From Acidobacteriota bacterium (GTDB lineage Bacteria; Acidobacteriota; Vicinamibacteria; Vicinamibacterales; UBA2999), in NCBI GenBank assembly GCA_023265015.1, contig JAHFUO010000003.1, forward strand, positions 2,866 to 66,865: a DNA stretch of 64,000 nucleotides, given 5' to 3'. The stretch's first letter is position 1, and every line of letters starts with the position of its first letter. A program made the translations under genes and the position numbers. Below, piece after piece: positions 18,835 to 63,314 of this stretch. A model generated the notes under the pieces. It did not search any database, had not been told where the DNA came from, and saw nothing but the letters and a program-made list of their open reading frames with translations.

Positions 18835-18845
18835 CCGGATACTTA

Positions 18846-18921: not shown

Positions 18922-18932
18922 CACAACGTCGA

Positions 18933-20155: not shown

Positions 20156-20166
20156 GATACAACACA

Positions 20167-29998: not shown

Positions 29999-30002
29999 TT
30001 CC

Positions 30003-32282: not shown

Positions 32283-32311
32283 ACGAATGGTGAATACGCG
32301 CGAATGTCCCG

Positions 32312-33310: not shown

Positions 33311-33311
33311 A

Positions 33312-49533: not shown

Positions 49534-50693
49534 CCGTCAACACGATGATCCCTGTCGCGCGCCCCTGGATGGACGAGCGCGAAGCCGAAGCGGCGCGCCG
49601 CGCGATCCTCTCCGGCTGGGTGACGCAGGGGCCGGAGGTGGCCGCCTTCGAGCGGGAGTTCGCGGCCGCGGTCGGCGCGCCCCACGCATGCGCCGTGTCG
49701 AGCTGCACCACCGCCTTGCACCTCGCGCTGCTGGCGGCCGGCGTGGGCGCAGGTGACGAGGTCATCACCGTCACTCACTCGTTCATCGCCACCGCGAACG
49801 CGATCCGCTACTGCGGCGCAACACCGGTGTTCGTTGACATCCAGCTCGAGACATTCAACATCGATCCCGCGCTCGTCGAGGCGGCGATATCCGCCCGCAC
49901 GAAGGCGATTCTTGCCGTGCATCAGCTCGGGATGCCGTGCGACCTCGCGTCGCTCATCGAGGTCGCCGGCCGCCGCGGGATTCCTGTTGTCGAGGATGCC
50001 GCGTGCGCGATCGGCAGCGAGATCAGCTGGCAGGGCGCGTGGGAGCGGATCGGCGCGCCGCGCGGCGACATCGCGTGCTTCTCGTTTCATCCGCGCAAGC
50101 TGGTGTCGACCGGCGACGGCGGCATGCTCACGACGAGCGATCCGGCGCTCGACCGGAAGTTCAGGCTGCGTCGACAGCACGGCATGAGCGTGCCGGACTC
50201 CGTGCGCCACGCGTCGAACCAGGTCATCTTCGAGGACTACCCGGTGCTCGGCTACAACTACAGGATGACCGACATCCAGGCGGCGATCGGCCGCGAGCAG
50301 CTGAAGCGCCTTCCGGCGATCGTCGCGCGCCGCCGTGAGCTGGCCGCGCGGTACCAGGCCGGGCTGGAATCGCTCGACGGCATCATCGTGCCGCGCGAGC
50401 CGGCGTGGGCCCGCAGCAACTGGCAGAGCTACGCGGTGCGCATCGGCGCGTGGATCGATCAGCGCACGGTGATGCAGCGGATGCTCGACGCCGGCGTGTC
50501 GACGCGCAGGGGCGCGACGAACGTCCATCGAGAGGCGGCCTATCCGCCGGAGGCCTGGCGCGCGGCGGGCACGCTCGCGCTGAGCGACGAAGCGCTGGAG
50601 ACGGCAATCGTGCTGCCGCTTTACCATCAGCTCACCGAAGAAGATCAGGACAGAGTGATCGACAGTCTCAAATCAGCGGTGCATTCTTCCTGA
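49530..50693 (+). CDS. DegT-family PLP-dependent sugar aminotransferase (ArnB/LegC/PglE-like)
   Basis: ATGA overlap. IPVARPWMDEREAEAARRAILSGWVTQGPEVAAFE, AVSSCTTALHLALLAAGVGAGDEVI, FSFHPRKLVSTGDGGML. Confidence 0.85.
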   Translation: MTVNTMIPVARPWMDEREAEAARRAILSGWVTQGPEVAAFEREFAAAVGAPHACAVSSCTTALHLALLAAGVGAGDEVITVTHSFIATANAIRYCGATPVFVDIQLETFNIDPALVEAAISARTKAILAVHQLGMPCDLASLIEVAGRRGIPVVEDAACAIGSEISWQGAWERIGAPRGDIACFSFHPRKLVSTGDGGMLTTSDPALDRKFRLRRQHGMSVPDSVRHASNQVIFEDYPVLGYNYRMTDIQAAIGREQLKRLPAIVARRRELAARYQAGLESLDGIIVPREPAWARSNWQSYAVRIGAWIDQRTVMQRMLDAGVSTRRGATNVHREAAYPPEAWRAAGTLALSDEALETAIVLPLYHQLTEEDQDRVIDSLKSAVHSS

Positions 50694-50710
50694 GCCCTGA
50701 GCCCCGAGCC
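50691..50710. repeat. Solo GAGCC-unit array (right-arm type of the GGCTCAAG/GAGCC family)
   Basis: tgagccctgagccccgagcc. Begins with the upstream stop codon and ends 3 nt before ATG 50714. No complementary left arm seen. Confidence 0.6.
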
Positions 50711-50713
50711 GAC

Positions 50714-51646
50714 ATGCTTTCCATTCTGACTCCTGCGTTCAACGAGGCCGCCAATCTGCCGGCGCTGTACGACCGCCTGGTCGAGACGATGGGCGTGGTG
50801 GGCGGTGAATGGGAATGGGTCATCGTCGACGATCATTCGCGCGACGAGACGTTCGCGGTCATCGAGCACCTGGCGATGCGCGACGCGCGTGTCCGCGGCG
50901 TGAGGCTGGCGCGCAACTCCGGCTCGCACGTCGCGATCACGTGCGGCCTGCATCACGTGGACGGCCGTGCGGCGGTGATGCTGGCGGCCGATCTCCAGGA
51001 TCCACCGGAGACGCTGACCGCGATGCTCGACAAGTGGCGCCATGGCGCGCAGGTCGTCTGGGCGGTCCGCCGCGAGCGCCCCGGCGAGAAATCGCACGCG
51101 GGGTTTGCCGCGCTGTATTACTGGATCATGCGGCGCGTCGTGGGCATGACGGAGATGCCGGCGCGCGGAACCGACTGTTTCCTCGTCGATCGCGCGGTGA
51201 TCGACGCGTTCCGGCGCTTCCCGGAGCGGAACGTCAGCGTGCTTGCGTTGATCACCTGGCTTGGCTTCCGCCAGGAGCAGGTCGAGTACGACAAGCAGCC
51301 GCGCGCGGGGGGCCAGTCGGGGTGGACGCTGGCGCGCAAGATCACGCTGGTTCTTGATTCGGTCGCGTCGTTCTCCGAGTTTCCGATCCGCCTCTGCTCG
51401 TACGCTGGTGTGGGGCTGATGGTGGTCGCGTGTGTGATCTTCGTTGCGTCGATCATCCTTCTGCCCAGCCTGGGCGGCGGCATCCTGTTCCTCATTGCCC
51501 TGATGATTGGATTGGCCGGGCTTCAGCTCCTGGCTCTCGGCATCGTCGGCGAATATGTCTGGCGGGCGCTCGATGAGGCGCGGCGCCGTCCGGCCTACGT
51601 GATCGAGGCGGTCGCCGGACAGCGCGAACCCGCCAAGCTGCAGTAG
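50714..51646 (+). CDS. GT2 polyprenyl-phosphate glycosyltransferase (ArnC/CsbB/GtrB-like)
   Basis: ILTPAFNEAANLPALYDRL, VIVDDHSRDETF, LAADLQDPPE. Two C-terminal TM helices ending GLQLLALGIVGEYVWRALDEARRRPAYVIE. Confidence 0.8.
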   Translation: MLSILTPAFNEAANLPALYDRLVETMGVVGGEWEWVIVDDHSRDETFAVIEHLAMRDARVRGVRLARNSGSHVAITCGLHHVDGRAAVMLAADLQDPPETLTAMLDKWRHGAQVVWAVRRERPGEKSHAGFAALYYWIMRRVVGMTEMPARGTDCFLVDRAVIDAFRRFPERNVSVLALITWLGFRQEQVEYDKQPRAGGQSGWTLARKITLVLDSVASFSEFPIRLCSYAGVGLMVVACVIFVASIILLPSLGGGILFLIALMIGLAGLQLLALGIVGEYVWRALDEARRRPAYVIEAVAGQREPAKLQ

Positions 51647-51647: not shown

Positions 51648-52595
51648 ATGACGATTTCCGGTTCGCCCATTTTGATCGACTGTGTCGCCGGGTATCACCT
51701 GAATCCGTTGACGTGCGGCATCGCGAAGTTCAACGCGATTCTCGCGCGTCGTCTCGAGCTGCCCGTCGTGGGGATCCGGTCGGTGGAGCTCGAGGGTTAC
51801 ACACGGCCGCTGCTGTCGCTCAAGATGAACGAGTTCACGGCGGAGGACGCGCTGGCGCTCGACACGTGGATCGATCGTCACGCGGGGCAGTTCGAGCTGT
51901 TCCTGCACGCCTTTGACGACACGGCGCTCGAGAAGCGGATGCTGGCGGCCGCCGCGCGGGTCTGCTGCGGCAATCGCGAGCTGTTCGAGCAGTTGAAGCC
52001 GGCGCGCCCCGATATCGTCGAGGCCTTCTGTCCGGGCACGCTGCTCAACCCGCAGCGGTTCCAGCAGACGGAGCTGTCGGTCTTCACCTTCGGCATGGCG
52101 CACAAGATCCGCGTGCCGCTCTATCGACGGCTCCGCGATCTGCTCGAGGCGACGGGGAAGACCTACTCCGTGTTCGTCTCGACGGCGCTCCACGAGAACA
52201 CCAGCTTTGACGACTCGTTCGTCGTGCGCTTCGAGGAGCTGCAGTCGATCTTCAACGGGCAGGTCTACTTCATGGGGTACCTGTCGGACACGGCGGTGTT
52301 CAATCACCTCGTCGACTGCACGTTCCTGGCGGCGTTCTTCGAGAAGGGACTGCGCGCGAACAACACCACGGTGAACGCCGCGATGGAATGCGGGTGCGCG
52401 GTGATCACGAACCTGGACGAGCATTCGCCCGACGGGCTCATGCACATGAAGAACGTGATCGACATCAATCGATGCGATCGGCTGCCGGACGTGGCGCAGG
52501 CGGAGACGATCGGCCGCGCGGCGCGCGACATCGCGCACGCGGACTACGGCTGGGACCAGCTCGTCGCGCAGCTGCGCCCGGTCGTCCGGACGTAG
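51648..52595 (+). CDS. Hypothetical protein with GT-B (GT1/GT4-like) C-terminal half
   Basis: 315 aa. VYFMGYLSDTAVFNHLVDCTFLAAFFEKGLRANNTTVNAAMECGCAVITN resembles the Glycos_transf_1 donor-binding segment. Confidence 0.45.
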   Translation: MTISGSPILIDCVAGYHLNPLTCGIAKFNAILARRLELPVVGIRSVELEGYTRPLLSLKMNEFTAEDALALDTWIDRHAGQFELFLHAFDDTALEKRMLAAAARVCCGNRELFEQLKPARPDIVEAFCPGTLLNPQRFQQTELSVFTFGMAHKIRVPLYRRLRDLLEATGKTYSVFVSTALHENTSFDDSFVVRFEELQSIFNGQVYFMGYLSDTAVFNHLVDCTFLAAFFEKGLRANNTTVNAAMECGCAVITNLDEHSPDGLMHMKNVIDINRCDRLPDVAQAETIGRAARDIAHADYGWDQLVAQLRPVVRT

Positions 52596-52713: not shown

Positions 52714-53796
52714 ATGGAATTGGCAGCGACCATCACGATCGGCACGCATGACATCGGCGACCACACGAAGTGCTACGTGATCGCCGAGATCGGCCACAAC
52801 CACCAGGGCAGCGTCGAGAAGGCGCGCGAGCTGTTCCGCGAGGCGAAGCTCGCGGGCGCCAACGCCGTGAAGCTGCAGAAGCGCGAGAACCGCGGTCTCT
52901 ACACGCGCGCGGCGTACAACAAGCCGTACGACAACGAGAACAGCTTCGGCTCCACCTACGGCGAGCATCGCGAGTTTCTCGAGTTCGGCCTCAGGGAATA
53001 CCGCGAGCTGCAGGCGTACGCGCGCGAGCTGGACGTCGACTTCTTCTCGACCGCGTTCGATCTCGCGAGCGCGGAATTCCTGAGACAGCTGGACCTTCCG
53101 GCGTACAAGATCGCCTCCGGCGATCTGAAGAGCACGCCGCTGCTGAAGCACGTGGCCGCCTTCGGCAAGCCGATCATCGTCTCCACCGGCGGCGCGGAGA
53201 TGGCCGACGTGCAGCGCGCGTACGACGCGATCATGCCGATCAACCAGCAGCTCGCGATCCTGCAGTGCACGGCCGGGTATCCCGCGGCGTTCGACGAGCT
53301 CGACCTGCGCGTGATCGGCACGTTCCGCGACCGCTTCCCGGGCGCCGTCATCGGCTTTTCCGGTCACGACAACGGCATCGCGATGCCGGTCGCCGCGTAC
53401 ATGCTCGGCGCGCGCATTGTCGAGAAGCACTTCACGCTGAATCGGGCGATGAAGGGCACCGACCACGCGTTCTCGCTCGAGCCGGTCGGCCTCCGCAAGT
53501 TGGTTCGCGACCTCGAGCGCACGCACAAGGCGCTTGGCAACGGCGTCAAGAAGATCTACGACAGCGAGAGGGCGCCGATCATCAAGATGGGCAAGAGCCT
53601 CGTCGTCGCGCGCGATCTTCCGGCCGGACACGTGATTGGACCGAAGGACATCATGATGAAGTCGCCCGGCGGCGGCATTCCCCCGTACGAGCTGGAGAAG
53701 GTGATCGGCTGCATAACGCTCAAGCCCCTGGTCGAGGATGATTTCCTCACCTTCGACGTCTTGAGCAAGCCGAACGCCGCGCTCGCCCGTTCGTGA
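52714..53796 (+). CDS. neuB: Nonulosonic acid synthase, NANS-like (possible sugar-phosphate-utilising Neu5Ac-9-P/Kdn-9-P synthase type) with SAF domain
   Basis: CYVIAEIGHNHQGSVEKARELFREAKLAGANAVKLQK, SFGSTYGEHREFLEFGLREYRELQAYARELDVDFFSTAFD, YKIASGD, GFSGHDNG, KGTDHAFSLEP, SLVVARDLPAGHVIGPKDIMMKSPG. Confidence 0.8.
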   Translation: MELAATITIGTHDIGDHTKCYVIAEIGHNHQGSVEKARELFREAKLAGANAVKLQKRENRGLYTRAAYNKPYDNENSFGSTYGEHREFLEFGLREYRELQAYARELDVDFFSTAFDLASAEFLRQLDLPAYKIASGDLKSTPLLKHVAAFGKPIIVSTGGAEMADVQRAYDAIMPINQQLAILQCTAGYPAAFDELDLRVIGTFRDRFPGAVIGFSGHDNGIAMPVAAYMLGARIVEKHFTLNRAMKGTDHAFSLEPVGLRKLVRDLERTHKALGNGVKKIYDSERAPIIKMGKSLVVARDLPAGHVIGPKDIMMKSPGGGIPPYELEKVIGCITLKPLVEDDFLTFDVLSKPNAALARS

Positions 53797-54602
53797 ACGA
53801 CGGTTTCCGTCTCGACAGCCAGATCGCCGTTGTCACCGGCGCCTGCGGCAAGCTTGGCCCGATCTGGGTCGAGGCGCTGCTCGGGGCCGGCGCGCGCGTG
53901 GCGGCCCTCGATCTGCCGGGCGCCCCCGTGTCGTCCGCGTTCCGGGCGCTGGCGGATGGCGCCCGCGAGCGGCTTCAGCGCTTCGATTGCGACATCACGA
54001 ACCGGCAGTCGATTGAAGGCGCGGCCGCGGCTGTCGCGACGCGGATGGGATCGCCGGCCGTGCTCGTCAACAACGCCGGCGTCGATCAGCCGCCGGACTC
54101 CAGCGGCAGCCGGTCGCGCATCGACGAGCTTCCGCTCGACCAGTTCCGGAAGATGATCGACGTGAACCTGCTCGGCACGTTCCAGGTCACGCAGGTGTTC
54201 GGCGCGCAGATGGCGAAGCGGGGCAGCGGCTCGATCATCAACATCGGCTCGCTGTACGCGTCGGTCTCGCCCGATCAGCGCCTCTACGATCACCTGGCGG
54301 GCGATCTGCCGTTCCTGAAGTCGCCCGCCTACGGCGCGTCGAAGGCGGCGGTCGTCAACATGACGAAATACTTTGCGACGCTGTGGGGCCGGCAGGGCGT
54401 CCGCGTGAACACGTTGTCGCCCGGCGGCGTGCTTGGCGGCCAGGACGAACAGTTCAAGGCGAAGTACGGCGCACGCGTGCCGCTGGGGCGGATGGCGCAG
54501 GCCGAGGACTTGACGGGACCGCTCGTGTTCCTCGCGTCGCCTGCCTCGTCGTACGTGACTGGACACGAGCTTCGCGTCGATGGAGGGTTTACGGCTTGGT
54601 GA
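53793..54602 (+). CDS. Classical short-chain dehydrogenase/reductase (SDR)
   Basis: GTGA overlap. AVVTGACGKLG, NNAGV, YGASKAAVVNMTKY (YxxxK), LSPGGV. Confidence 0.8.
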   Translation: MNDGFRLDSQIAVVTGACGKLGPIWVEALLGAGARVAALDLPGAPVSSAFRALADGARERLQRFDCDITNRQSIEGAAAAVATRMGSPAVLVNNAGVDQPPDSSGSRSRIDELPLDQFRKMIDVNLLGTFQVTQVFGAQMAKRGSGSIINIGSLYASVSPDQRLYDHLAGDLPFLKSPAYGASKAAVVNMTKYFATLWGRQGVRVNTLSPGGVLGGQDEQFKAKYGARVPLGRMAQAEDLTGPLVFLASPASSYVTGHELRVDGGFTAW

Positions 54603-54608
54603 ACACGA

Positions 54609-54644
54609 TCAACGCCCAACGCCAAACTTTCAACTCCCAAGGCG
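54609..54644. repeat. Solo CCAAC-unit half element (left-arm type of the 37547 palindrome)
   Basis: tcaacgcccaacgccaaactttcaactcccaaggcg vs tccaacgaccaacgtccaactcccaggcg at 37546-37574. No TTGGG arm follows. Confidence 0.6.
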
Positions 54645-54697
54645 CAATCCTCTCAGCGATTCCGTCGACAATCCCGAACCAGATCGGCAGCGACGAT

Positions 54698-56116
54698 ATG
54701 GGGCCGCTCGAGGGCCGCCTGTTCACGAAGATGGATCCGGCAACGGGCCGGGCGCTGTGCCAGGTGGCACGCTCGAGCGCGGCGGACGTGGATCTCGCGG
54801 TCGGCAAAGCAAAGGCGGCGCAGCCTGCCTGGGCGGCGACGACCGTCGTCAAGCGCGGAGACATCCTCAGGCAGATTGCGCTGCTGATGCGCGAGCACCG
54901 CGACGCGATTGCCATGCTCGTCTCGAAGGAGACAGGCAAGTCGAAGAAGGACGCGCTCGGCGAGACCGACGCCGCGATCGAGATGGGTTTTTTCGTCGCC
55001 GGCGAGGGACGCCGTTTCTACGGCCAGACGACCACGAGCGCGGTGCCGAACAAGTCGGCGATGGTGATTCGCCAGCCGCTCGGCGTCGCCGGCCTCATCA
55101 TTGCCGCCAACACGCCGATCGCCAACGTCGCGTGGAAAGCGTTTCCGGCGCTGCTGTGCGGCAACGCGGCGATCCTCAAGGCGGCCGAAGACACGCCGCT
55201 CTCGGCGTGGGCGTTTGGCGTGCTCGCGCGCCAGGCCGGCGTGCCCGACGGCGTCTACACGACGCTGCACGGTCTCGGCAAGGAAGCGGGCGCGCCGCTC
55301 GTCGAGCATCCGGACGTGGCGGTCATCAGCTTCACGGGCTCGTGCGAGGTGGGACGCTGGATCGCCGAGACCGCGGGCCGTCGTCTCGCGAAAGTCTGCC
55401 TCGAGCTTGGCGGCAAGAACCCGTTGATCGTCTGCGACGATGCGGATCTGCAGAATGCGGTGACGTGGACGCTCGGATCGGCGTTCAGCAACGCCGGGCA
55501 GCGGTGCGCGGCCGGCAGTCGGATCATCGTGTTCGACGCTGTGTACGATCGCTTCAGGAACATGCTTGTCGACGCGACGAAGAAGCTGAAGGTCGGCGCC
55601 GGCGATACCGATGATTACGGCCCGGTGATCAATGAAGAGCAGATGACGAACATGCTTGGCGCCGTCGAGCGCGCGAAGCAGTCGGGCGCGGCGGTGCTCA
55701 CCGGCGGCGAGCGGCTGAAGGGCGACCGGTACGGCGACGGGTATTTCATGGCGCCGACCATCGTGGAGCCTGTCGACCCGAACGACGAGATCACGCGCAG
55801 CGAGCTCTTCGGCCCGATCACATGCCTCTATCGCGTGAAGGATTTCGAGGAGGCGATCGCGCTGGCGAACGATTCGCCGTTCGGCCTGACCGCCGCGATT
55901 CACACGCAGAACATCAACCGCGCGATGACCTTCATCGGACGCATCCAGTCGGGCGTCGCCGTGGTGAACGGCGGCACGTACGGCAGCGAGCCGCACATGC
56001 CGTTCGGCGGCCTGCGGCAGTCGGGGAACGGCTGGCGCGAAGCCGGCACGCAGGCGCTCGACGTGTACTCGGATCTCAAGACCGTGTACATCAATCACAA
56101 CCCCAATCTGACGTAA
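54698..56116 (+). CDS. NAD(P)-dependent aldehyde dehydrogenase family protein
   Basis: In frame within track ORF 54383..56116. ISFTGSCEVGRWI, CLELGGKNP, FSNAGQRCAAGSR (catalytic Cys), ELFGPI. Start ATG 54698 chosen because the upstream in-frame stretch is a repeat element. Confidence 0.8.
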   Translation: MGPLEGRLFTKMDPATGRALCQVARSSAADVDLAVGKAKAAQPAWAATTVVKRGDILRQIALLMREHRDAIAMLVSKETGKSKKDALGETDAAIEMGFFVAGEGRRFYGQTTTSAVPNKSAMVIRQPLGVAGLIIAANTPIANVAWKAFPALLCGNAAILKAAEDTPLSAWAFGVLARQAGVPDGVYTTLHGLGKEAGAPLVEHPDVAVISFTGSCEVGRWIAETAGRRLAKVCLELGGKNPLIVCDDADLQNAVTWTLGSAFSNAGQRCAAGSRIIVFDAVYDRFRNMLVDATKKLKVGAGDTDDYGPVINEEQMTNMLGAVERAKQSGAAVLTGGERLKGDRYGDGYFMAPTIVEPVDPNDEITRSELFGPITCLYRVKDFEEAIALANDSPFGLTAAIHTQNINRAMTFIGRIQSGVAVVNGGTYGSEPHMPFGGLRQSGNGWREAGTQALDVYSDLKTVYINHNPNLT

Positions 56117-56197
56117 GGGGTCGGGAGTCATTACAAGAATCGAAATCGAGGTCAGTTGGCGTCGTTTATTTCGATTCTCGTAATGACTCCCGACCCC
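56117..56197. repeat. 30-bp-stem hairpin (1 mismatch, 21-nt loop)
   Basis: ggggtcgggagtcattacaagaatcgaaat (56117-56146) pairs with atttcgattctcgtaatgactcccgacccc (56168-56197). Starts right after the TAA stop and ends 6 nt before ATG 56204. Confidence 0.9.
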
Positions 56198-56203
56198 ATC
56201 ACA

Positions 56204-57010
56204 ATGCCATCCGCAGTCGCACTCATCCCAGCACGCCAGGGTTCCAAGCGCGTTCCGGGCAAGAACGTCCGCGTGCTGCAGGGGCATCCGATGCTCGCGT
56301 ACACGATCGCGCCGGCGCTCGAGAGCGGCGTGTTCACGTCGGTGATCGTGTCGACCGACTCGGAGGAGATCGCAGGAATCGCACGGCACTACGGCGCCGA
56401 GGTCCCGTTTCTGCGGCCGGCCGAGTTCGCCGGCGACACGTCGCCCGATATCGAGTGGGTCGACTACACGCTCGGCGAGCTGAAGCGCCGCGGCCGGACG
56501 TGGGACGGCTTTTCGCTGCTGCGCCCGACGAGCCCGTTCCGCACCGCCGACACGATCCGCCGGGCGTGGGCGCGATTCATCGCGCACGATGGCGCCGATT
56601 CGCTGCGCGCCATCGAGAAATGCGGGCAGCATCCCGCCAAGATGTGGGTGCTGCAGGGCGACCGGATGATTCCATTGATGAAGCCGTCGGATCCGGGCGC
56701 GCCGCCGTGGCACAGCATGCCGTACCAGGCGCTCCCGCCCATTTACGTGCAGAACGCGTCGCTCGAGATCGCCTGGACGCGCGTCGTCCCGGAGACGCAC
56801 ACGATCGCCGGCGCTGTGCTCGTCCCGTTCCTCACGGAAGGCTACGAGGGATTCGATATCAACGATCCGCACGACTGGATGATTGCCGAGCGGCTGCTCG
56901 CCGACGGTGCGGTGACGTTGCCGCGCGTCGCGCAGGAACCGTACGGCGCTGTCCGCCTCTACGACGCGTCGCACGACGATGAAGAACGGCCGAGACACCA
57001 GCGACCGTAG
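56204..57010 (+). CDS. neuA: Acylneuraminate/nonulosonate cytidylyltransferase (NeuA-type), copy 3
   Basis: MPSAVALIPARQGSKRVPGKNVRVLQGHPMLAYT...VSTDSEEIAGIARHYGAEVPFLRPAEFAGDTSPDIEWV...LLRPTSPFR. Track start 56156 lies inside the hairpin. Confidence 0.8.
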   Translation: MPSAVALIPARQGSKRVPGKNVRVLQGHPMLAYTIAPALESGVFTSVIVSTDSEEIAGIARHYGAEVPFLRPAEFAGDTSPDIEWVDYTLGELKRRGRTWDGFSLLRPTSPFRTADTIRRAWARFIAHDGADSLRAIEKCGQHPAKMWVLQGDRMIPLMKPSDPGAPPWHSMPYQALPPIYVQNASLEIAWTRVVPETHTIAGAVLVPFLTEGYEGFDINDPHDWMIAERLLADGAVTLPRVAQEPYGAVRLYDASHDDEERPRHQRP

Positions 57011-57042
57011 AGGCGGCTCTTCAGACCCGCCTGGGAAAACGA

Positions 57043-59016
57043 ATGGGTGACCTGCAGACAGAACAGGGCGAGAGCTTAGAGCTCCGATACGTACCCGTCT
57101 CGGAATTCACGCGCGTGCTCGGCGCGAAGGCGGACGCCGCGGCACGTGCCGAAGCCTTCGCGGCGCTCGCGCGGATCAACACGCTGTACATGATCGCGGG
57201 CGCGTGGTCGGGTCACATCGGCACGAGCTTCAGCTCGCTCGAGATCATGAGCTGGCTGTTTCTCAACGAGCTTCGCGATCTCGACAAGGGGCCTGACGAC
57301 TGCGACGTGTTCTTCTCGTCGAAGGGTCACGACGCTCCAGCGCTCTATTCGGTCCTGATCGGTCTCGGCCTGCTTCCCGGAGACAAGCTGCACCAGCTCC
57401 GCCGCCTCGGCGGATTGCCGGGACATCCGCACGTCGAGACCCCGTTCGTCCAGGCGAACACGGGGTCGCTCGGCATGGGCATCTCCAAGGCAAAGGGGAT
57501 GGCGCTGGCAAACCGGTTGGCGAGCGCCCCGCGCCGCATCTTCGTGCTCACCGGCGACGGCGAGCTGCAGGAAGGCCAGTTCTGGGAGTCGCTCGGATCG
57601 GCGGCGAACATGGGTCTCGGCGAGATCGTCGCGATCGTCGATCACAACAAGATTCAGTCGGACACATGGGTCAAGACAGTCAGCGACCTCGGCGATGTCG
57701 AGGCAAAGCTGCGCGCGTTCGGCTGGCACGTGAGCCGGTGTGACGGCCACGACATGCGCGCGATCGAGCGCGCGTTCCGCGCCCTCGATGCGGTGAAGGA
57801 TCGGCCGAAGGTCATCGTCGCCGACACCGTCAAGGGCCGCGGCGTGTCGTTCATGGAGGGACCGAACGCCCTGAAGAAGGAGAGCGACCTCTACCTGTTT
57901 CATTCGGGCGCGCCGCCGGAGCAGCAGTACATCGACGGCCTGAAGGAGCTGCTCGACGCCGCGGGACGGGCACTCGAGGAGCTCGGCCTCGGATCGCTCA
58001 CGACCGAGACGCGCACGCGCAACCCGCGCCGCGAGCCGCGCGACACGCACAACCTGGTCGCGGCCTACGGCAAGGCGCTCGTGCAGCAGGCGGAGCGCCA
58101 TCCGCATCTCATCGTCCTCGATGCGGATCTGATCAAGGACTGCGGCCTGCTGGACTTTGCCGCGAAGTTCCCCGAGCGGTTTGTCGAGTGCGGCATCGCG
58201 GAGCAGGACATGGCGTCGATGGCGTGCGGCATGGCGCGCCGCGGCGCGCTGCCGATCGCTCATTCGTTCGCGTGCTTCCTGTCCACGCGGCCGAACGAGC
58301 AGATCTATAACCAGTGCAGCGAGGGATCGAAGGCGATCTACGTCGGCTCGCTTGCCGGTGTGCTCCCGGGCGGACCCGGCCACTCGCACCAGTCCGTGCG
58401 CGACATCAGCGCGCTGAGCGCCGTGCCCAACCTGCTGATGGCGGAGCCGGCGGCCGAAGGCGAGGTGCACGCGCTGGTCGATTACCTCGTCAACGACGCG
58501 GCGGAGAGCGCGTACCTGCGCCTCGTGTCGGTGAAGTGGCCGCTGCCGTTCACGTATCCCATCAACACCCGCGTGCAGCCGGGCAGGGGCTGGATCGTGC
58601 GGCCGGGCAACGACGCGGTCGTGTTCGGGTACGGGCCGTGGCTGCTGTCGAACGCATGGCACGCCGCGGAGGACATCGAGACGACGACGGGAGCGCGTCT
58701 CCGGATCGTCGACCTGCCGTGGCTGAATCGCGTGGACGCCGTCTGGCTGCGCGACACGATCGGCTCCACCCGCACGATCATCACCCTCGACAATCATTAC
58801 GTGCACGGTGGACAGGGAGAGATGCTGGGCGCGGCGATCGCGGAGCTCAGCCTCGAGCCGGCCGCGCGCGTCTCGCGCATCGGCGTCACCGGGCTGCCCG
58901 AGTGCGGCACCAATGACGAGGTGCTCGCGTACCACGGTCTCGACGTGGCCGGGCTGGTGACGCAGTTCCGCGCGGCGCTCGGGCGGAAGGCGGGCACGGT
59001 CTCGCAGATTGCGTGA
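57043..59016 (+). CDS. Transketolase-family ThDP enzyme; N-terminal (PP) and C-terminal (Pyr + TKC) parts in one 657-aa chain
   Basis: GHIGTSFSSLEIM, FFSSKGHDAPALYSVL, GSLGMGISKAKGMA, LTGDGELQEGQFWESL...IVDHNKIQSD, then FVECGIAEQDMASMACGMA. Confidence 0.8.
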   Translation: MGDLQTEQGESLELRYVPVSEFTRVLGAKADAAARAEAFAALARINTLYMIAGAWSGHIGTSFSSLEIMSWLFLNELRDLDKGPDDCDVFFSSKGHDAPALYSVLIGLGLLPGDKLHQLRRLGGLPGHPHVETPFVQANTGSLGMGISKAKGMALANRLASAPRRIFVLTGDGELQEGQFWESLGSAANMGLGEIVAIVDHNKIQSDTWVKTVSDLGDVEAKLRAFGWHVSRCDGHDMRAIERAFRALDAVKDRPKVIVADTVKGRGVSFMEGPNALKKESDLYLFHSGAPPEQQYIDGLKELLDAAGRALEELGLGSLTTETRTRNPRREPRDTHNLVAAYGKALVQQAERHPHLIVLDADLIKDCGLLDFAAKFPERFVECGIAEQDMASMACGMARRGALPIAHSFACFLSTRPNEQIYNQCSEGSKAIYVGSLAGVLPGGPGHSHQSVRDISALSAVPNLLMAEPAAEGEVHALVDYLVNDAAESAYLRLVSVKWPLPFTYPINTRVQPGRGWIVRPGNDAVVFGYGPWLLSNAWHAAEDIETTTGARLRIVDLPWLNRVDAVWLRDTIGSTRTIITLDNHYVHGGQGEMLGAAIAELSLEPAARVSRIGVTGLPECGTNDEVLAYHGLDVAGLVTQFRAALGRKAGTVSQIA

Positions 59017-59026
59017 CAGCGTCGTG

Positions 59027-59815
59027 ATGACCGTTCTCTTCTGGGACATCGACGGCACGCTGCTGACGACCGGCAGGGCCGGGGTGCCGGCGTGGGAAGC
59101 CGCGGTTCGCGAGACGACGGGGAAGGACTTCGAGCTGTCGTCGATTCGCGTGCCGGGGCTCACCGATTATCAGATCGCGGTGCAGACGTTCGAGCTTCTC
59201 GGCGTGACGGCGACCGCCGAGCTGCTCGCGCGGATGGTCACGCGTTACGAGGAGATGCTGCCGTCGACGCTGCCGCTCAAGCAGGGACGCGTGCTGCCGA
59301 ACGTGCGCGAGGTTCTCGAGGCGCTGCGGGACCGCGACGATGTGCGGTCGTACCTGCTGACCGGCAACACGCGCGCCGGCGCGCGCGCGAAGCTGACACA
59401 CTACGACCTGTTCCAGTATTTTCCTGACGGGGCGTTTGCCGAGGACCAGGGGAACCGGGCGTCGATCGCGACGCGCGCGCTGGAGCTGGCGCGGCGCGGC
59501 GGCCCGGTTGCCGGCGATCGGATCTTCGTGATCGGCGACACGCCGCACGACATCGAGTGCGCGGCCGCCATCGACGCGCGCACGATCGCCGTCGCGACCG
59601 GCGGCTACACGGTGGAGGAGCTGTCGACGCATCAACCCTGGCGCGTGTGTGCCGAGCTTCCGCCTCCCTCCGAGTTTCTGCCGATGATCGACGAGCCGCG
59701 ATCGGCATCCGCTCGGGAGATGGGCCGGCTGTCCGCCTCCGCGCGAGGCGCTACGGACGGACCGGCCGAAGCACAGGGCGAAGGCGGGAAGCCCGCCCCT
59801 ACGGTGCGCGGATGA
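59027..59815 (+). CDS. HAD-superfamily hydrolase (phosphatase candidate)
   Basis: MTVLFWDIDGTLL (DxDGT), LLTGNTR, FVIGDTPHDIECA. Low-complexity C-terminal tail. Confidence 0.75.
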   Translation: MTVLFWDIDGTLLTTGRAGVPAWEAAVRETTGKDFELSSIRVPGLTDYQIAVQTFELLGVTATAELLARMVTRYEEMLPSTLPLKQGRVLPNVREVLEALRDRDDVRSYLLTGNTRAGARAKLTHYDLFQYFPDGAFAEDQGNRASIATRALELARRGGPVAGDRIFVIGDTPHDIECAAAIDARTIAVATGGYTVEELSTHQPWRVCAELPPPSEFLPMIDEPRSASAREMGRLSASARGATDGPAEAQGEGGKPAPTVRG

Positions 59816-61530
59816 GGCATGTCATCCGGAACTTTCCGGCGCTCTGGCGGGCGAGCCGCCTCGCACGGCGTTGGTACTACGCGCGATGGAACGCCTATCC
59901 GGACTGGCGGGAGCCGCTGGCGGCCGATCGCGGGCTGTGGGACTCCGCGCGCACCGCGGCGCAGGGCGGGCCGCGCGTGCTGATGGCGACGTCGATCGGC
60001 TCGTACGCGCACGCGGTGACGCTCGAGAGCGCGCTCGCGGCAGCGCTCACGTTCCGCGGCGCCGAGGTCCACGCACTCCTCTGCGACGGCGCGATGACCG
60101 CCTGCGCGGAATGCGAAGCGTCGCTCTATCCGAACCTGAAGCACTTCGCCGACCACGGCCCGTCGCGCGATTTGTGCCGTGACTGCCGGTGGCCCGCCGA
60201 GCGCGTCTACGCGCAGCTTGGCCTCAAGGTCCATCGCTTCGGCGACTGGCTCACCCCCGCCGATCGAGCAGACGCGCATCGCATCGCGTCGACGCTGGCT
60301 GTCGGCGAGGTCGAACACTTCAGCCTCGACGGCCTCGCGATTGGCGAGCACGCGCATGCCGGCGCGCTTCGGTTCTTCGCGACCGGCTCGCTGGATCAGG
60401 AACCCTACTCCGAGGCCATCCAGCGCCGTTACCTCGAATCGGCCCTGCTGACCGCCTCCGCCACGAGGCGGCTCATGCGCGAAGTCGGGTTCTCCTCGGC
60501 GGTCTTCACGCACGGCATCTACGTGCCGTGGGGGATTGTCGGCGAGGTGGCGCGTCGCGAGGGCGTGCGCGTCTCCAACTGGAACGTCGCCTATCGGAAG
60601 CGCCGCTTCATCTTCAGCCACGGCGACACGTACCATCACACGCTGCTGAGCGAGCCGCGCGAGCACTGGGAGCAGCTCGAGATCTCCCCGGCGCAGGAGC
60701 GCGAGCTGATGCAGTACCTCGCAAGCCGCCGCGAGGGGATGTTCGACTGGATCGTCTTCCATCGGCCGACGAAACAGGACCCGCAGGAGATCGCCCGGGC
60801 AATCGGACTCGACCCGTCGAAGCCGGCGATCGGCCTGCTGACCAACGTGTCGTGGGACGCGCAGCTGCATTATCCCGCCAACGCGTTCCCGAACATGCTC
60901 GAGTGGCTCGTGCAGACATGCGAGTACTTCGCGACGCGTCCGGACCTGCAGCTGCTCATTCGCGTGCACCCGGCGGAGATCAGCGGCTTCCCGCCGTCGC
61001 GCCAGCCGATCCTCGCGGAGCTGCGCACGCGCCTCCCGCGCCTCTCGCCGAACATCATCGTCGTGCCGCCGGAGAGCGGCTTGAGCACGTACGCGCTCAT
61101 GTCGCTGTGCAATTCGGCGATCATCTATGGCACCAAGATGGGCGTGGAGCTGACGAGCGTCGGGCTGCCGGTGATCGTGGCGGGCGAAGCGTGGATCCGC
61201 AACAAGGGGATCACGCTCGATGCGACCACGCCTGAGGAATATTTCCGGCTGCTGTCGCAGCTCCCGTGTGCCGATCGCCTCGCCTCGGCGCAGCTGGCTC
61301 GCGCGCGCCGCTACGCGTATCACTTCTTCTTCAACCGCATGATTCCGCTGCCGTTCATCGAGCCGAAGGCCGGATATCCGATCTACCGCCTGAAGCTCGA
61401 TCGGCTGCAGCAGCTGCTGCCGGGCGCGTCCCCGGGGCTCGACACGATCTGCAACGGCATCCTCGCCAGCGCGCCGTTCGTGCTGCGCGACAAGGGGAGC
61501 AGGACGCCGGAGCTTACCGCCGCCCGTTGA
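59812..61530 (+). CDS. Cys-rich GT-B-like protein with HP motif (capsule-biosynthesis KpsS/KpsC-like candidate; distant relative of family A)
   Basis: ATGA overlap. VLMATSIGSYAHAVTLESALAAALTFRGAEVHALLCDGAMTACAECEA...CRDCRW; LLIRVHPAEISGF; CNSAIIYGTKMGVELTSVGLPVIVAG. Confidence 0.5.
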   Translation: MRHVIRNFPALWRASRLARRWYYARWNAYPDWREPLAADRGLWDSARTAAQGGPRVLMATSIGSYAHAVTLESALAAALTFRGAEVHALLCDGAMTACAECEASLYPNLKHFADHGPSRDLCRDCRWPAERVYAQLGLKVHRFGDWLTPADRADAHRIASTLAVGEVEHFSLDGLAIGEHAHAGALRFFATGSLDQEPYSEAIQRRYLESALLTASATRRLMREVGFSSAVFTHGIYVPWGIVGEVARREGVRVSNWNVAYRKRRFIFSHGDTYHHTLLSEPREHWEQLEISPAQERELMQYLASRREGMFDWIVFHRPTKQDPQEIARAIGLDPSKPAIGLLTNVSWDAQLHYPANAFPNMLEWLVQTCEYFATRPDLQLLIRVHPAEISGFPPSRQPILAELRTRLPRLSPNIIVVPPESGLSTYALMSLCNSAIIYGTKMGVELTSVGLPVIVAGEAWIRNKGITLDATTPEEYFRLLSQLPCADRLASAQLARARRYAYHFFFNRMIPLPFIEPKAGYPIYRLKLDRLQQLLPGASPGLDTICNGILASAPFVLRDKGSRTPELTAAR

Positions 61531-63314
61531 TATATCTCCCAATCGCGTTCCTCATCTCGCTGGCTGCCAGCGTCGCTCTGTGCGCGATCGTTCGCCGCGC
61601 GGCGCCGGCGATCGGGGCGATCGTTCCGCCCAGCGCCGACCGCTGGCACAGCGAGCCGACGCCGACGATGGGCGGCCTGGCGATCGCGGCGGCGACGGTG
61701 CTTGGGTTCGGCGCGGTGGTGGCGCGCGTGGACGTGACGGCGGTGCCCGCCGCATGGCTGCCGATTCCGCTTGCCGCGGTTGCCATGTTCATCGTCGGCG
61801 TGCTCGACGATCGCCTGCAGCTGTCGCCGCTGGCGAAGCTCGTGTCGTCGCTCATCATCGGGGCGTTTCTCGTGTTCTCGATGGCGACGAGACCGGACGC
61901 GGCGCTGCCATGGACCCACACCCTCGTCGCGACGATCTGGTTTGCAGGTGTGTGCCACGCGCTGAACTTGCTGGACAACATGGACGGGCTTGCCGCCGGC
62001 GTGGCGCTGATTGCCGCGGCGTTCCTGGCGTGGCTGCTCGCGCCGGCGCTCGGCGGCCCGCTCGTGCTGCTGCTCGTCGGCCTGTGCGGCGCGCTCCTGG
62101 GATTTCTGTACTGGAACCGTCCCCCGGCGCGCCTGTTCATGGGCGATTGCGGGAGCCTGTTCATCGGCGCCGTGCTCGCGGGAGCGTCGCTGACGCCGGC
62201 CCTGCAGGAGCGAAGCAGCTTTCCGTGGACGTCGGTGCTCGTCGTGGTCGTCCTGGTCGTGCCGCTGTTCGACACCGGGTTCGTGCTCGTGCTCCGGCGC
62301 TTCGCCGGCCGCAGCGCCACGCGCGGCGGCACCGATCACGTGTCGCATCGGCTCGTGTCGCTCGGCTTCTCGGAGCGAAGCGCCGTCCGCATCCTGTATC
62401 TCGTGGGAATCGTCGGCGGATTGACCGCGTGGGGGCTCGTGCTCGGCGGCATCGATCAGATGCTGCCGCTGGCGGCGCTTTTCGCCGTCGTCGTGACGCT
62501 GGTGGGAGTCTATCTCGCACGGGTGCAGGCGTACAACGCGCAGGACTTCGCGGCGCTCGAGAGCTCGTCGTTCGCGCCGCTCCTCAAGGACCTGACGTTC
62601 CGGTGGCACGCGGGCGAGGTGATGCTCGACCTGGTGCTGATCGCCGCGTGCTACTACTTCGCGTACCGCCTCCGCTTCGAGGGCGAGAGCCTCGACCACT
62701 TCCTCCCGTACTTCACCGCATCCCTGCCGGTCGTGCTCGGCTGCAAGCTCGCGTCGCTGTATGGCTCCGGACTGTACCAACGCTCGTGGGAGACCTTCGG
62801 CCTGCGCGACGTGGCGGTCGTGCTGCGGGGGGTGTTCATGGGTTCGCTGCTCTCGATCCTCGCCGCGGCCTATTTCTACCGCCTCGAGGGCTTCTCGCGC
62901 GTGGTCTTCATGCTCGATGCGCTGCTGCTGACGGTGGCGATCATCGGCACGCGCGCCTCGTTTCGCAGCATGAGCCTTGTCGCCGCATCGCGGAACAAGA
63001 GGAGCCGCCGCGTGCTCGTGTACGGCGCGGGCGCGTTCGGCCAGATGATCGTGCGCGAGATGCGCGCCAACACCGAGTGGGCGATGAACCCGGTCGCGTT
63101 CATCGACGACGACCCGACGAAGGCGCATCGCTGGATCATGGGCGTGCCGGTGCGCGGCGCGCTCGGCGAGCTCGAGGCGACGATGCGCCGCTACTCGGTG
63201 GACGAAGTGATCCTGAGCAGCCCGTCGATCAACGGCACGATCGAGCACCGGATTCGTGAAGTCTGCCTGGAGCTCGAGTGTCCCGTGCGCCGGCTTCACA
63301 TGGACATTCAGTGA
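61527..63314 (+). CDS. WecA/MraY-family polyprenyl-phosphate HexNAc-1-phosphate transferase fused to a C-terminal TM + Rossmann (CoA-binding-like) module
   Basis: VLDDRLQLSPLAKL, NLLDNMDGLAAG, LFMGDCGSLFIG. C-terminal RVLVYGAGAFGQMIVREM...AFIDDDPTKAHRWIMGVPVRG...VDEVILSSP resembles the N-terminal module of WbaP/PglF/CapD-type proteins. TTG 61527 start inferred (TTGA overlap). Confidence 0.7.
   Translation: MIYLPIAFLISLAASVALCAIVRRAAPAIGAIVPPSADRWHSEPTPTMGGLAIAAATVLGFGAVVARVDVTAVPAAWLPIPLAAVAMFIVGVLDDRLQLSPLAKLVSSLIIGAFLVFSMATRPDAALPWTHTLVATIWFAGVCHALNLLDNMDGLAAGVALIAAAFLAWLLAPALGGPLVLLLVGLCGALLGFLYWNRPPARLFMGDCGSLFIGAVLAGASLTPALQERSSFPWTSVLVVVVLVVPLFDTGFVLVLRRFAGRSATRGGTDHVSHRLVSLGFSERSAVRILYLVGIVGGLTAWGLVLGGIDQMLPLAALFAVVVTLVGVYLARVQAYNAQDFAALESSSFAPLLKDLTFRWHAGEVMLDLVLIAACYYFAYRLRFEGESLDHFLPYFTASLPVVLGCKLASLYGSGLYQRSWETFGLRDVAVVLRGVFMGSLLSILAAAYFYRLEGFSRVVFMLDALLLTVAIIGTRASFRSMSLVAASRNKRSRRVLVYGAGAFGQMIVREMRANTEWAMNPVAFIDDDPTKAHRWIMGVPVRGALGELEATMRRYSVDEVILSSPSINGTIEHRIREVCLELECPVRRLHMDIQ

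Follow-up and report, generated by a model that had tools for sequence, protein, structure and literature searches.

The genes between positions 52714 and 59815 of the 64-kb stretch of DNA analysed here (the window) may form a single operon that makes an ulosonic acid with a modified tail, activates it with CMP and transfers it into a surface polysaccharide, the product being a 3-deoxy-heptulosaric acid similar to Dha. Judging from gene families and comparative genomics, we give this reading a probability of roughly 45%. We hold slightly more tentatively that the cassette would encode the first pathway for the synthesis of an ulosaric acid: a specialised transketolase (TK) that has lost its sugar-phosphate site would trim a C2 unit from an 8-keto-nonulosonic acid and, together with an SDR and an aldehyde dehydrogenase (ALDH), would convert Kdn (or Neu5Ac) into a CMP-activated C7 dicarboxylic "Dha-like" sugar.

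Gene layout and conservation of the cassette

The block had initially been annotated as six co-directional genes. Indeed, it comprises six intact open reading frames, all on the + strand and translationally coupled, with strong family matches and with coordinates at or near those first assigned. Genes of the block overlap by 4 bp; the ALDH gene, for instance, most likely starts at a GTG at 54599 that overlaps the stop of the SDR gene. Other modules are also present in the 64-kb window.

The core order synthase-SDR-ALDH-CMP synthetase-TK was found to be colinear in 37 of the 61 loci whose flanks were complete, in more than 10 phyla. Individually, the synthase was present in 51 of these loci, the SDR in 55, the ALDH in 56 and the CMP synthetase in 51. 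The phyla include Acidobacteriota, Nitrospirota, Gemmatimonadota, several classes of Proteobacteria, Chloroflexota and Planctomycetota, as well as Myxococcota, Desulfobacterota, Verrucomicrobiota, Cyanobacteria and Actinomycetota. The cassette genes stay adjacent while the flanking genes change. Because dozens of genomes, drawn from many phyla, share this gene order, the juxtaposition is not due to chance. The initial annotation had regarded an SDR, an ALDH and a TK among nonulosonic acid (NulO) genes as an undescribed combination; our literature search found no published description of the cassette, and the combination proves to be conserved as well. We also searched the surroundings of the cassette loci for a further conserved enzyme (precursor supply, isomerase, kinase or GNE-type) and found none to be conserved, so that the pathway must draw on a central metabolite.

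Several loci depart from this arrangement. Four loci of Vicinamibacterales (L008, L018, L022 and L054) keep ALDH-CMP synthetase-TK-HAD, with synthase and SDR absent within 10 kb. An actinomycete variant (L006 and L087) associates synthase-SDR-TK with an RraA-like aldolase and is devoid of the CMP synthetase. Finally, a SIS+CBS sugar-phosphate isomerase lies near the cassette of L004.

Enzymes of the block and its flanks

The synthase (52714..53796, + strand) presents NeuB and SAF domains (PF03102, 4e-77; PF08666, 2e-9) and contains the peptide SFGSTYGEHREFLEFGLREYRELQAYARELDVDFFSTAFD, quoted in the initial annotation when a NANS/Kdn-9-P type was suggested. Alignment supports this suggestion: the protein scored 264 bits against human NANS (39% identity over the full length with a single gap; for the human sequence used, verification against PDB 1wvo covers the C-terminus) versus 134 bits against N. 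meningitidis NeuB and 128-160 bits against NeuB, PseI and SpsE of the PDB. It also differs, as had been stated, from the other NeuB of the window (29982-31061; 31% identity, 154 bits). Its 150 nearest clusters, all scoring at least 232 bits, include P0219, which is 57% identical to the same human NANS sequence, and its relatives carry the JGI name "sialic acid synthase". Orthologous synthases adjoin, or are fused to, KdsC-type phosphatases. A PDB search for a NANS catalytic domain with bound substrate returned no such structure. By these comparisons, the synthase is of the NANS/Kdn-9-P-synthase type, putatively specific for a sugar 6-phosphate, and not NeuB/PseI-like.

The product of a NANS-type synthase is phosphorylated, and a dedicated phosphatase is accordingly expected beside the enzyme. 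In the window, the predicted phosphatase is a HAD-IA protein (59027..59815, + strand; matches to HAD families) whose translation reads the motifs DIDGT and GDTPHD. Among 55 related loci, the HAD-IA gene was found in 31, where it is syntenic, and a KdsC/Kdn-9-P-phosphatase-type gene replaces it in 10; no locus had both. In addition, P0122 is a fusion of the synthase with a KdsC domain. Since the two phosphatase types are mutually exclusive and synthase-KdsC fusions exist, the phosphatase step is, on comparative grounds, integral to the pathway. The role of pathway phosphatase initially suggested for the HAD protein is thus well supported, and we propose that it acts as an ulosonate-9-phosphate phosphatase. 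An assignment to a subfamily with an unrelated known substrate had been named as the finding that would speak against this role; every NCBIfam match of the window protein fell far below its cut-off, and its best match in the PDB was 2hcf, an uncharacterised HAD. Membership in the KdsC/YrbI (HAD-IIIA) family is ruled out for this HAD-IA protein, which did not match the KdsC or Kdn-9-P phosphatase models; its role would be analogous.

The CMP-ulosonic acid synthetase (56204..57010, + strand, with an alternative start at 56183) belongs to the NeuA/PseF/KdsB superfamily. The cytidylyltransferase motif PARxGSKRxPxKN is readable in its translation, and CTP_transf_3 (4e-20) matches the N-terminal part only; the C-terminal half is divergent and the PseF model scored 131 bits, below its cut-off. 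The gene lies directly upstream of the TK gene in 51 of the 61 full-flank loci.

A gene for a 572-aa protein (59812..61530, + strand) follows TK/HAD in 41 of these 61 loci. Its family has no database name and its relatives are all called "hypothetical protein". The window protein scored 14.3 bits against PF05159 (cut-off 20), a model weakly matched by 19 of 21 orthologues (best 2.7e-5), and one relative has a precomputed PF05159 match. A sequence search of the PDB gave no match. Its AF2 model is of low confidence (pLDDT 59, pTM 0.56), and Foldseek matched it exclusively to GT-B folds with TM of at most 0.37; these were UDP-GlcNAc 2-epimerases, GT1 enzymes and one polysialyltransferase, a generic GT-B likeness. 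Probably, the protein is a distant GT-B relative of the beta-Kdo glycosyltransferases KpsC/KpsS (Pfam Capsule_synth, CAZy GT107). The stop of its gene overlaps the start of a gene for a WecA/MraY-type polyprenyl-phosphate sugar-phosphate transferase of the GT4 family (61527..63314, + strand; Glycos_transf_4, 2e-29; C-terminal CoA_binding_3, 3e-15), which is kept downstream in the Vicinamibacterales loci. On the other side of the block, a 315-aa protein, possibly a glycosyltransferase (51648..52595, + strand), matched no family in Pfam or NCBIfam. It is conserved upstream of the synthase in Acidobacteriota, and its orthologues (49-89% identity), found in 32 of the 61 loci, immediately precede the synthase gene in each of them.

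The TK (57043..59016, + strand) is a divergent, fused enzyme with three TK domains and the motif GDGELQEG...DHN. Among structures, it is closest to human TK (216 bits) and to a split TK, and it presents weaker matches to DXS models. Besides the three domains, it retains the ThDP/metal signature GDG...N, the cofactor-activating Glu and the catalytic His residues (H37, H77, H110 and H258) of canonical TKs; across the family, H37, K75, H77, H110, D155, N185, K244, H258 and E366 (human numbering) are kept in at least 81 of 82 members, so that the cofactor site and the residues for catalysis at the donor C1-OH are preserved. In the established TK literature, as in the residue list that we used (PMC8016368), human Arg318, Ser345, His416 and Arg474 form the phosphate site and Asp424 contacts the acceptor C2-OH or donor C4-OH. 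Neither feature is found in the family of the window TK. R318 has no aligned counterpart (the window TK has an Asn two residues upstream), and the substitutions S345D, H416L, D424P and R474S each occur in at least 80 of 82 members (81 for D424P), with the motif PGHSHQ in place of DGPTHQ or DGPSQM. Human residues could be read directly in the PDB alignment, and an E. coli TK sequence served as a provisional second reference. Scanning GTDB species genomes for the motifs [FY]FSSKGHD and GMGISKAK yielded at least 534 relatives. For Rhizobium and Sinorhizobium, the search covered plasmids, and its matches were ordinary TKs with ~33% identity. On this evidence, the TK belongs to a specialised family and is not a housekeeping enzyme.

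The SDR (53793..54602, + strand; adh_short_C2, 5e-45; motifs TGxxxGxG, NNAG and YxxxK) is placed after the synthase in 55 of the 61 full-flank loci and its gene lies directly 3' of the synthase gene in L004, L005, L006 and L087. Its nearest NCBIfam models, all below cut-off, are mannonate oxidoreductase, gluconate 5-dehydrogenase and KduD, and its best PDB matches include sorbitol dehydrogenase (4npc) and gluconate 5-dehydrogenase (1vl8). Polyols and sugar acids are the substrates of these relatives; gluconate 5-dehydrogenase and sorbitol dehydrogenase oxidise the carbon adjoining a terminal CH2OH. The predicted NAD(P)-dependent ALDH (54599..56116, + strand; PF00171 (Aldedh), 5e-153; motifs ELGGKNP and GQRC) is nearest to the models for alpha-ketoglutaric semialdehyde dehydrogenase, whose product is a 2-keto-dicarboxylate, and 2,5-dioxovalerate dehydrogenase (413 bits, below cut-off). 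Its gene is missing from five otherwise complete loci (L052, L084, L086, L083 and L067), so that an ulosaric acid cannot be the end product in every case.

Proposed pathway and alternatives

The steps leading to a transferable CMP-sugar have strong comparative support. The synthase would condense PEP with a central sugar 6-phosphate, most parsimoniously Man-6-P to give Kdn-9-P, or alternatively ManNAc-6-P to give Neu5Ac-9-P. The HAD-IA enzyme would remove the 9-phosphate, and the NeuA-like enzyme would form a CMP-sugar for the probable KpsC/KpsS-like GT-B transferase. We infer three further steps. Before or after CMP activation, the SDR may oxidise the C8 hydroxyl, a penultimate-carbon regiochemistry suggested by its distant, sub-threshold likenesses, to create a CH2OH-CO-CHOH tail with the D-threo configuration of fructose. 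Comparing Kdn with fructose in Fischer projection, we derived that C7 and C6 of 8-keto-Kdn correspond to the 3S,4R centres of TK donors. This tail could then serve as ketol donor for the divergent TK, which we propose to cut between C7 and C8, carrying off the C2 unit and leaving a C7 aldehyde. The ALDH, again by distant and sub-threshold likeness, would turn this aldehyde into a carboxylate. A 3-deoxy-hept-2-ulosaric acid would result, either a stereoisomer of Dha or an analogue (C7H10O8 if derived from Kdn); the Man-6-P-derived compound is predicted to be the L-arabino isomer, as opposed to natural D-lyxo Dha.

The initial annotation had instead considered that the SDR, ALDH and TK supply or modify the sugar-phosphate precursor, which our results do not support as written. 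Tailoring of the dephosphorylated ulosonic acid fits better because the TK phosphate site is replaced, because the SDR resembles enzymes that oxidise polyols or sugar acids at the penultimate carbon and the ALDH is similar to 2-keto-acid semialdehyde dehydrogenases, and because no precursor-supply gene is conserved. It is nevertheless conceivable, if unlikely, that the three enzymes precede the synthase in the pathway and provide it with an unusual aldose phosphate to condense with PEP, for instance from a polyol or aldonate phosphate through a ketose that the TK cleaves. An aldose released by a TK is what a NeuB-family synthase needs, a precursor of AHBA biosynthesis comes from a dedicated TK, and the isomerase near the L004 cassette would fit such a supply. 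However, the product must retain a terminal phosphate since the phosphatase is integral to the pathway, and the TK has no aligned Arg318 while its three other phosphate-binding residues are invariantly replaced. The ALDH has no logical substrate before condensation because the aldose would be destroyed, neither an isomerase nor a kinase is conserved in the cassette, and both SDR and ALDH resemble acid-sugar enzymes. Less likely again is the reverse use of the TK, in which the SDR would make an aldehyde or ketone and the TK would add a C2 ketol from hydroxypyruvate or a ketose, giving a C11 or branched acid. The TK keeps all that is needed for dihydroxyethyl-ThDP transfer, ThDP enzymes of the YerE and AviB type add C2 branches to sugars, and some loci miss the ALDH. 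Yet this scheme leaves no role for an ALDH that 56 of 61 loci encode, a ketose phosphate could serve as donor only with the phosphate site that the TK has lost, and SDRs of the gluconate-5-dehydrogenase/sorbitol dehydrogenase type act on secondary alcohols and not on the primary C9 alcohol.

Two other explanations appear improbable. The TK-like enzyme could act on the C1-C2 alpha-keto acid in the manner of DXS or a 2-oxoacid decarboxylase, with the ALDH converting the resulting 2-deoxy-aldose into a 2-deoxy-aldonic acid. This would provide the ALDH with an aldehyde and agrees with the weaker DXS matches, DXS being a TK relative that decarboxylates an alpha-keto acid, and with the actinomycete variant that is devoid of the CMP synthetase. 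It would, however, destroy the anomeric keto acid that the conserved NeuA-like synthetase and the probable KpsC/KpsS-like transferase need, and leave the SDR without a role. Very improbable, and the least likely of all in our estimate, is an ordinary CMP-Kdn or CMP-Neu5Ac pathway in which the SDR, ALDH and TK serve unrelated sugar or housekeeping functions and merely share the locus. Synthase, phosphatase and CMP synthetase alone do make a complete known pathway (PMC6200933), and polysaccharide loci are mosaics, with other modules in the window. Although three genes would suffice for plain CMP-Kdn or CMP-sialic acid, the SDR, ALDH and TK are interleaved with them and co-conserved. Five genes remain colinear and adjacent over more than 10 phyla while the flanks change, genes overlap by 4 bp, and the TK is of a specialised family rather than a housekeeping one.

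Implications and comparison with known systems

Bacterial surfaces are recognised to a large extent through their nonulosonic acids. To our knowledge, the described NulO pathways all differ in the hexose precursor, and none alters the skeleton of nine carbons. If the tailoring pathway proposed here is correct, the skeleton would be re-cut after condensation, so that the resulting acidic surface sugars would form a class of their own and a TK family would gain a new reaction type; by motif scan, the cassette is present in at least 534 GTDB species genomes. Hundreds of species from more than 10 phyla would bear such a sugar on their surface. Standard surveys of NulO genes would overlook it, as might DMB-HPLC standards. 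Dominant soil Acidobacteriota (Vicinamibacterales) are among the carriers, so the sugar may be plentiful in the extracellular polymers of soil. Bacterial Dha could be explained by the same logic, which would offer a testable lead on the unsolved biosynthesis of heptulosaric acids, such as Dha, in bacterial LPS.

Among the closest known systems is the CMP-Kdn pathway of Bacteroides thetaiotaomicron (Kdn-9-P synthase BT1714, Kdn-9-P phosphatase BT1713 and a CMP-Kdn synthetase), also described in Prymnesium parvum (PMC6200933). Like this pathway, the cassette combines a NANS-type synthase predicted to use a sugar 6-phosphate with a phosphatase that the route cannot do without and with a CMP synthetase, and many orthologous cassettes also have the KdsC/BT1713-type phosphatase. 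In contrast, the window has a HAD-IA enzyme in this position, and its SDR, specialised TK and ALDH have no counterpart in the CMP-Kdn pathway. The animal NANS-NANP-CMAS pathway is similar in its synthase, given the 39% identity and single gap relative to human NANS. The window phosphatase is presumably a C1-capped HAD-IA protein, of the same class as NANP. Unlike the animal pathway, however, the cassette has no conserved GNE-type supply of ManNAc-6-P, encodes additional tailoring enzymes and lies in a bacterial polysaccharide operon.

Dha (3-deoxy-D-lyxo-hept-2-ulosaric acid) occurs in plant RG-II, prasinophyte thecae and the LPS core of Rhizobiaceae, and neither its biosynthesis nor its activated form is known (PMC3355719, PMC12168206; Russa et al. 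1991 cited in PMC5713287). In constitution, the predicted product is identical to it, a 2-keto-3-deoxy dicarboxylic pyranose of C7H10O8, but would be L-arabino rather than D-lyxo when derived from Man-6-P, and no cassette carrier is known to contain Dha. Tail-end oxidation of a finished ulosonic acid before CMP activation has a parallel in Kdo8N of Shewanella, where the alcohol oxidoreductase KdnB and the aminotransferase KdnA act on C8 of Kdo; that route uses other enzyme families and involves no carbon-carbon cleavage. A chemical precedent for the cleavage itself is the proposed route to tartaric acid, in which L-idonate 5-dehydrogenase yields 5-keto-D-gluconate, a TK cleaves it into C4 and C2 units and tartaric semialdehyde dehydrogenase forms tartrate (PMC7970118, PMC12016104). 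In both cases, the penultimate carbon of a sugar acid would be oxidised, a C2 unit cut off by a TK and the new aldehyde converted into a second carboxylate. This is an analogy only and not pathway homology: the tartaric route is catabolic, relies on promiscuous housekeeping or engineered TKs and includes plant steps that are only proposed, whereas the cassette would devote a TK family of its own to a biosynthetic operon.

Layout and conservation of the cassette

The window represents a polysaccharide locus of high GC content (about 67%), and the nearest relatives of this locus are MAGs of Vicinamibacterales, phylum Acidobacteriota. Every gene that the initial annotation had listed between 52714 and 59815 was found on the plus strand as an intact ORF. 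These genes encode a NeuB+SAF synthase (52714-53796), a short-chain dehydrogenase (SDR, 53793-54602), an aldehyde dehydrogenase (ALDH, 54599-56116), a NeuA-like cytidylyltransferase (56204-57010), a fused, three-domain transketolase (57043-59016) and a HAD-IA hydrolase (59027-59815). For the ALDH gene, the likeliest start is the GTG at 54599, which overlaps the SDR stop codon. The catalytic motifs of all six enzymes are readable in the translations. The operon extends 3' of the HAD gene into the genes of a 572-aa protein (59812-61530) and a WecA/MraY-type transferase (61527-63314), both on the plus strand and each starting on the stop codon of the preceding gene. Just 5' of the synthase lies the gene of a conserved 315-aa protein (51648-52595, plus strand) that matches no family.

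Two motifs of the transketolase family, scanned against GTDB species genomes, yielded at least 534 confirmed relatives. We mapped the window proteins by tblastn in the best 80 of these at least 534 loci, 61 of which have full flanks. Among these 61, the synthase was detected in 51, the SDR in 55, the ALDH in 56 and the CMP synthetase in 51, and the five core genes were colinear within 7 kb in 37. The cassette is conserved far beyond its source organism: carriers include Acidobacteriota, Nitrospirota, Gemmatimonadales, Gamma- and Alphaproteobacteria, Sideroxyarcus, Polaromonas, Chloroflexaceae, SAR202, Planctomycetota, Myxococcota, Verrucomicrobiota, Obscuribacterales, Moorena, a Streptomyces plasmid and, among Desulfobacterota, Desulfosediminicola flagellatus (complete genome). 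Carriers available in culture include Desulfosediminicola flagellatus IMCC35005 (L078), Geminicoccus flavidas CPCC 101082 (L082), Moorena bouillonii PNG5-198 (L060) and Streptomyces sp. NBC_01237 (L087). When ORFs from 45 distant loci were clustered all against all, no further conserved enzyme emerged, and in particular no gene for ManNAc-6-P supply, isomerase or kinase, which implies that the input must be a central sugar phosphate together with PEP.

Synthase type and phosphatase step

The synthase aligned over its full length, with a single gap, to human NANS (39% identity, 264 bits). In comparison, it scored 154 bits (31%) against the other NeuB of the window (29982-31061), and solved structures of bacterial NeuB, PseI and SpsE gave 128-160 bits. 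The C-terminal domain of the human sequence used here matched PDB 1wvo, human sialic acid synthase, with 129 bits over 67 residues, and the 150 clusters (50% identity) closest to the synthase include a representative 57% identical to that human sequence. Close relatives of the synthase carry the JGI label 'sialic acid synthase'. By sequence, the synthase is of the NANS type, and the earlier claim of a NANS-like enzyme stands after this grouping.

The phosphatase was followed across 55 related loci with synthase, SDR and transketolase. An orthologue of the HAD-IA gene was found in 31 of them; in 10 others it is replaced by a KdsC-type gene (about 170 aa) that sits between those for synthase and SDR and matches models of KdsC/YrbI and of the B. 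thetaiotaomicron Kdn-9-P phosphatase. The two genes never occurred together (0/55). Based on a 1.5-kb spacing, we had considered a synthase-phosphatase fusion in the loci lacking HAD, and this was ruled out by the separate KdsC-type gene found there. Such a fusion was observed in P0122, a synthase relative (59% identity) whose KdsC domain scores above the TIGR01670 cut-off. In the known Kdn and animal sialic acid pathways (PMC6200933), the synthase makes a phosphorylated ulosonate; if this holds here too, non-orthologous displacement of this kind is to be expected, and it marks the phosphatase step as integral to the pathway. For the HAD protein itself, every NCBIfam score was far below cut-off and no match to a family assigned an unrelated substrate was seen, in agreement with its initial assignment as the pathway phosphatase.

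Transketolase family and proposed tailoring route

The closest structures to the window transketolase are human transketolase and a split transketolase. Across 82 members of its family, the ThDP/metal motif, the cofactor-activating Glu and the catalytic residues H37, K75, H77, H110, K244 and H258 (human numbering) are kept in at least 81. D424, which binds the acceptor 2-OH and the donor 4-OH, is Pro in 81 members. The residues holding the phosphate in the human enzyme are exchanged in at least 80 members (S345 to D, H416 to L, R474 to S), and R318 has no aligned counterpart in the family. All these residue roles follow the active-site list in PMC8016368 and the established transketolase literature. 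Because an E. coli transketolase was placed out of register by MAFFT near some motifs, the residue calls rest on the human alignment and visual inspection. Conservation of this kind indicates a specialised family. With its catalytic residues kept and its phosphate site changed, the enzyme should cleave or transfer a ketol unit on a substrate other than an ordinary sugar phosphate. Four family-specific basic residues, K149, H407, H447 and R453 (window numbering), are present in at least 80 of the 82 members and absent from human transketolase; if the substrate is an acid sugar, they are candidate contacts for its carboxylate.

The nearest characterised relatives of the SDR are gluconate 5-dehydrogenase, sorbitol dehydrogenase, mannonate oxidoreductase and KduD, enzymes with polyols and sugar acids as substrates. 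Of these, gluconate 5-dehydrogenase and sorbitol dehydrogenase oxidise the secondary alcohol beside a terminal CH2OH to give a CH2OH-CO- end. Acting on dephosphorylated Kdn or Neu5Ac, the SDR would thus produce an 8-keto acid. Counted from C9, the tail of this acid would show the left/right pattern of fructose C3/C4, as Kdn has its C7-OH on the right and its C6-O on the left and a 180-degree rotation of the Fischer projection inverts both. This tail would be 3S,4R, the configuration demanded of transketolase donors, and the pyranose ring oxygen would stand as the donor '4-OH', a possible reason why the Asp has been lost. The transketolase would then cut C7-C8, releasing a C2 unit and leaving a C7 aldehyde. 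The nearest models to the ALDH are alpha-ketoglutaric semialdehyde dehydrogenase and 2,5-dioxovalerate dehydrogenase, both of which convert a 2-keto-acid semialdehyde to a 2-keto-diacid; on the C7 aldehyde, the ALDH would yield a 3-deoxy-hept-2-ulosaric acid. The requirement for a free C9-OH would explain both why the phosphatase acts first and why the transketolase no longer needs a phosphate site.

Against the NeuA, PseF and KdsB models, the cytidylyltransferase remained below cut-off, and its Pfam match covers the N-terminal part only; this divergence is compatible with an unusual sugar substrate. Relatives of the 572-aa protein are all named 'hypothetical protein', and a profile search against PDB sequences gave no match. 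Independently of one another, 19 of its 21 orthologues match Pfam Capsule_synth, the KpsC/KpsS family (best E-value 2.7e-5); the window protein scores 14.3 bits, below cut-off, and Foldseek found only a generic GT-B resemblance for its low-confidence AF2 model. Tentatively, it is read as a probable CMP-ulosonate-dependent transferase.

Variant loci, neighbouring modules and known pathways

Several loci depart from this arrangement. The ALDH is absent from the otherwise complete cassettes L052, L084, L086, L083 and L067, whose end product may be the aldehyde or a reduced 7-carbon acid. In the Vicinamibacterales loci L008, L018, L022 and L054, synthase and SDR are cleanly absent within 10 kb, and the 315-aa protein, ALDH, CMP synthetase, transketolase, HAD and 572-aa protein are kept in order. 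In Moorena, the CMP synthetase, transketolase and HAD genes are located apart from the remaining cassette genes. An actinomycete variant consists of synthase, SDR and transketolase (L006, 1281-6489; L087, Streptomyces sp. NBC_01237 plasmid NZ_CP108509, 7135-10884), followed in L006 by an RraA-like protein (HMG/CHA aldolase family) and an RmlD-like reductase. Neither ALDH nor cytidylyltransferase was found near these two loci, and this variant may be part of a natural-product pathway instead of a glycan pathway. In L004 (7216-8181), whose synthase is 66% identical to that of the window, the genes just upstream encode a SIS+CBS (KpsF/KdsD-like) sugar-phosphate isomerase and also a Wzy polymerase; the contig stops after the SDR.

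Directly 5' of the window cassette (48520-51646, plus strand) are genes for an NDP-sugar 4,6-dehydratase-like SDR (nearest LegB), a DegT aminotransferase (nearest PseC, ArnB and LegC) and an ArnC/PgfS-like GT2. This trio looks like a module that loads undecaprenyl phosphate with an amino sugar; its conservation is limited to some Vicinamibacterales loci, and it lies outside the cassette core. An Arn pathway for the whole block was considered on account of a formyltransferase inserted between SDR and ALDH in a relative (L001, 11901-12812). It was rejected, as this gene is confined to one closely related lineage (L001-L003 and L007), absent from the window and from every other locus compared, and as the dehydratase and aminotransferase of the trio, with LegB and PseC/ArnB as their nearest models, lie outside the conserved core. 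The formyltransferase probably belongs with the upstream amino-sugar module. Weak PhnX-like and PhnY-like matches raised a phosphonate pathway, which was dismissed in turn: these matches are far below cut-off, and no PEP mutase occurs among the conserved genes of the cassette.

Elsewhere in the window, a separate, conventional NulO module (29982-34001, plus strand) comprises a NeuB-type synthase (29982-31061), a NeuC-type hydrolysing UDP-GlcNAc 2-epimerase (about 31100-32215; TIGR03568, 354 bits, above cut-off), a methyltransferase (32294-33235) and a PseF-like cytidylyltransferase (33294-34001). Also on the plus strand are a second UDP-GlcNAc 2-epimerase (18807-20087), a short ORF (20176-20526) with 46% identity to the cassette cytidylyltransferase over 117 aa, and a methyltransferase (20843-21859). 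Beside these genes, no synthase of the NeuB family was detected, and this 'first NulO module' (18807-21859) may therefore be incomplete. Two very large plus-strand ORFs of 1084 aa (13883-17137) and 1020 aa (25795-28857) have gene-like GC3 and no Pfam match at all, and several additional ORFs (400-600 aa) between 34 and 48 kb are likewise without family. On the opposite strand, a sulfotransferase, a GT2 and a polysaccharide deacetylase (10722-13571) suggest a sulfated polysaccharide.

The 7-carbon diacid 3-deoxy-D-lyxo-hept-2-ulosaric acid (Dha) occurs in plant RG-II and green algae (PMC3355719, PMC12168206) and, according to Russa et al. 1991 as cited in PMC5713287, in the LPS core of Rhizobiaceae. 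How it is made and in which form it is activated were still listed as unknown in 2025 (PMC3355719, PMC12168206). The Streptomyces plasmid was the one relevant match in a search of a plasmid collection; the Rhizobium and Sinorhizobium matches were ordinary split transketolases (about 33% identity) and so provide no link to the Dha-containing Rhizobiaceae. With Man-6-P as the input, the predicted product of the cassette would be the L-arabino isomer, in contrast to the D-lyxo configuration of natural Dha. There is a substantial chance that with this cassette transketolases gain a new reaction class, and bacterial surface sugars a new class. Literature searches on this set of genes, or on ulosaric acids in connection with transketolase, returned nothing relevant; in the searchable literature, the SDR-transketolase-ALDH tailoring is without described counterpart among nonulosonic acid pathways. 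By its synthase, phosphatase and CMP synthetase, the cassette is a member of the known NANS/Kdn-9-P type of pathway; its tailoring part shares an equivalent three-step logic with the formation of tartrate from 5-keto-D-gluconate, itself a proposal (PMC7970118, PMC12016104).
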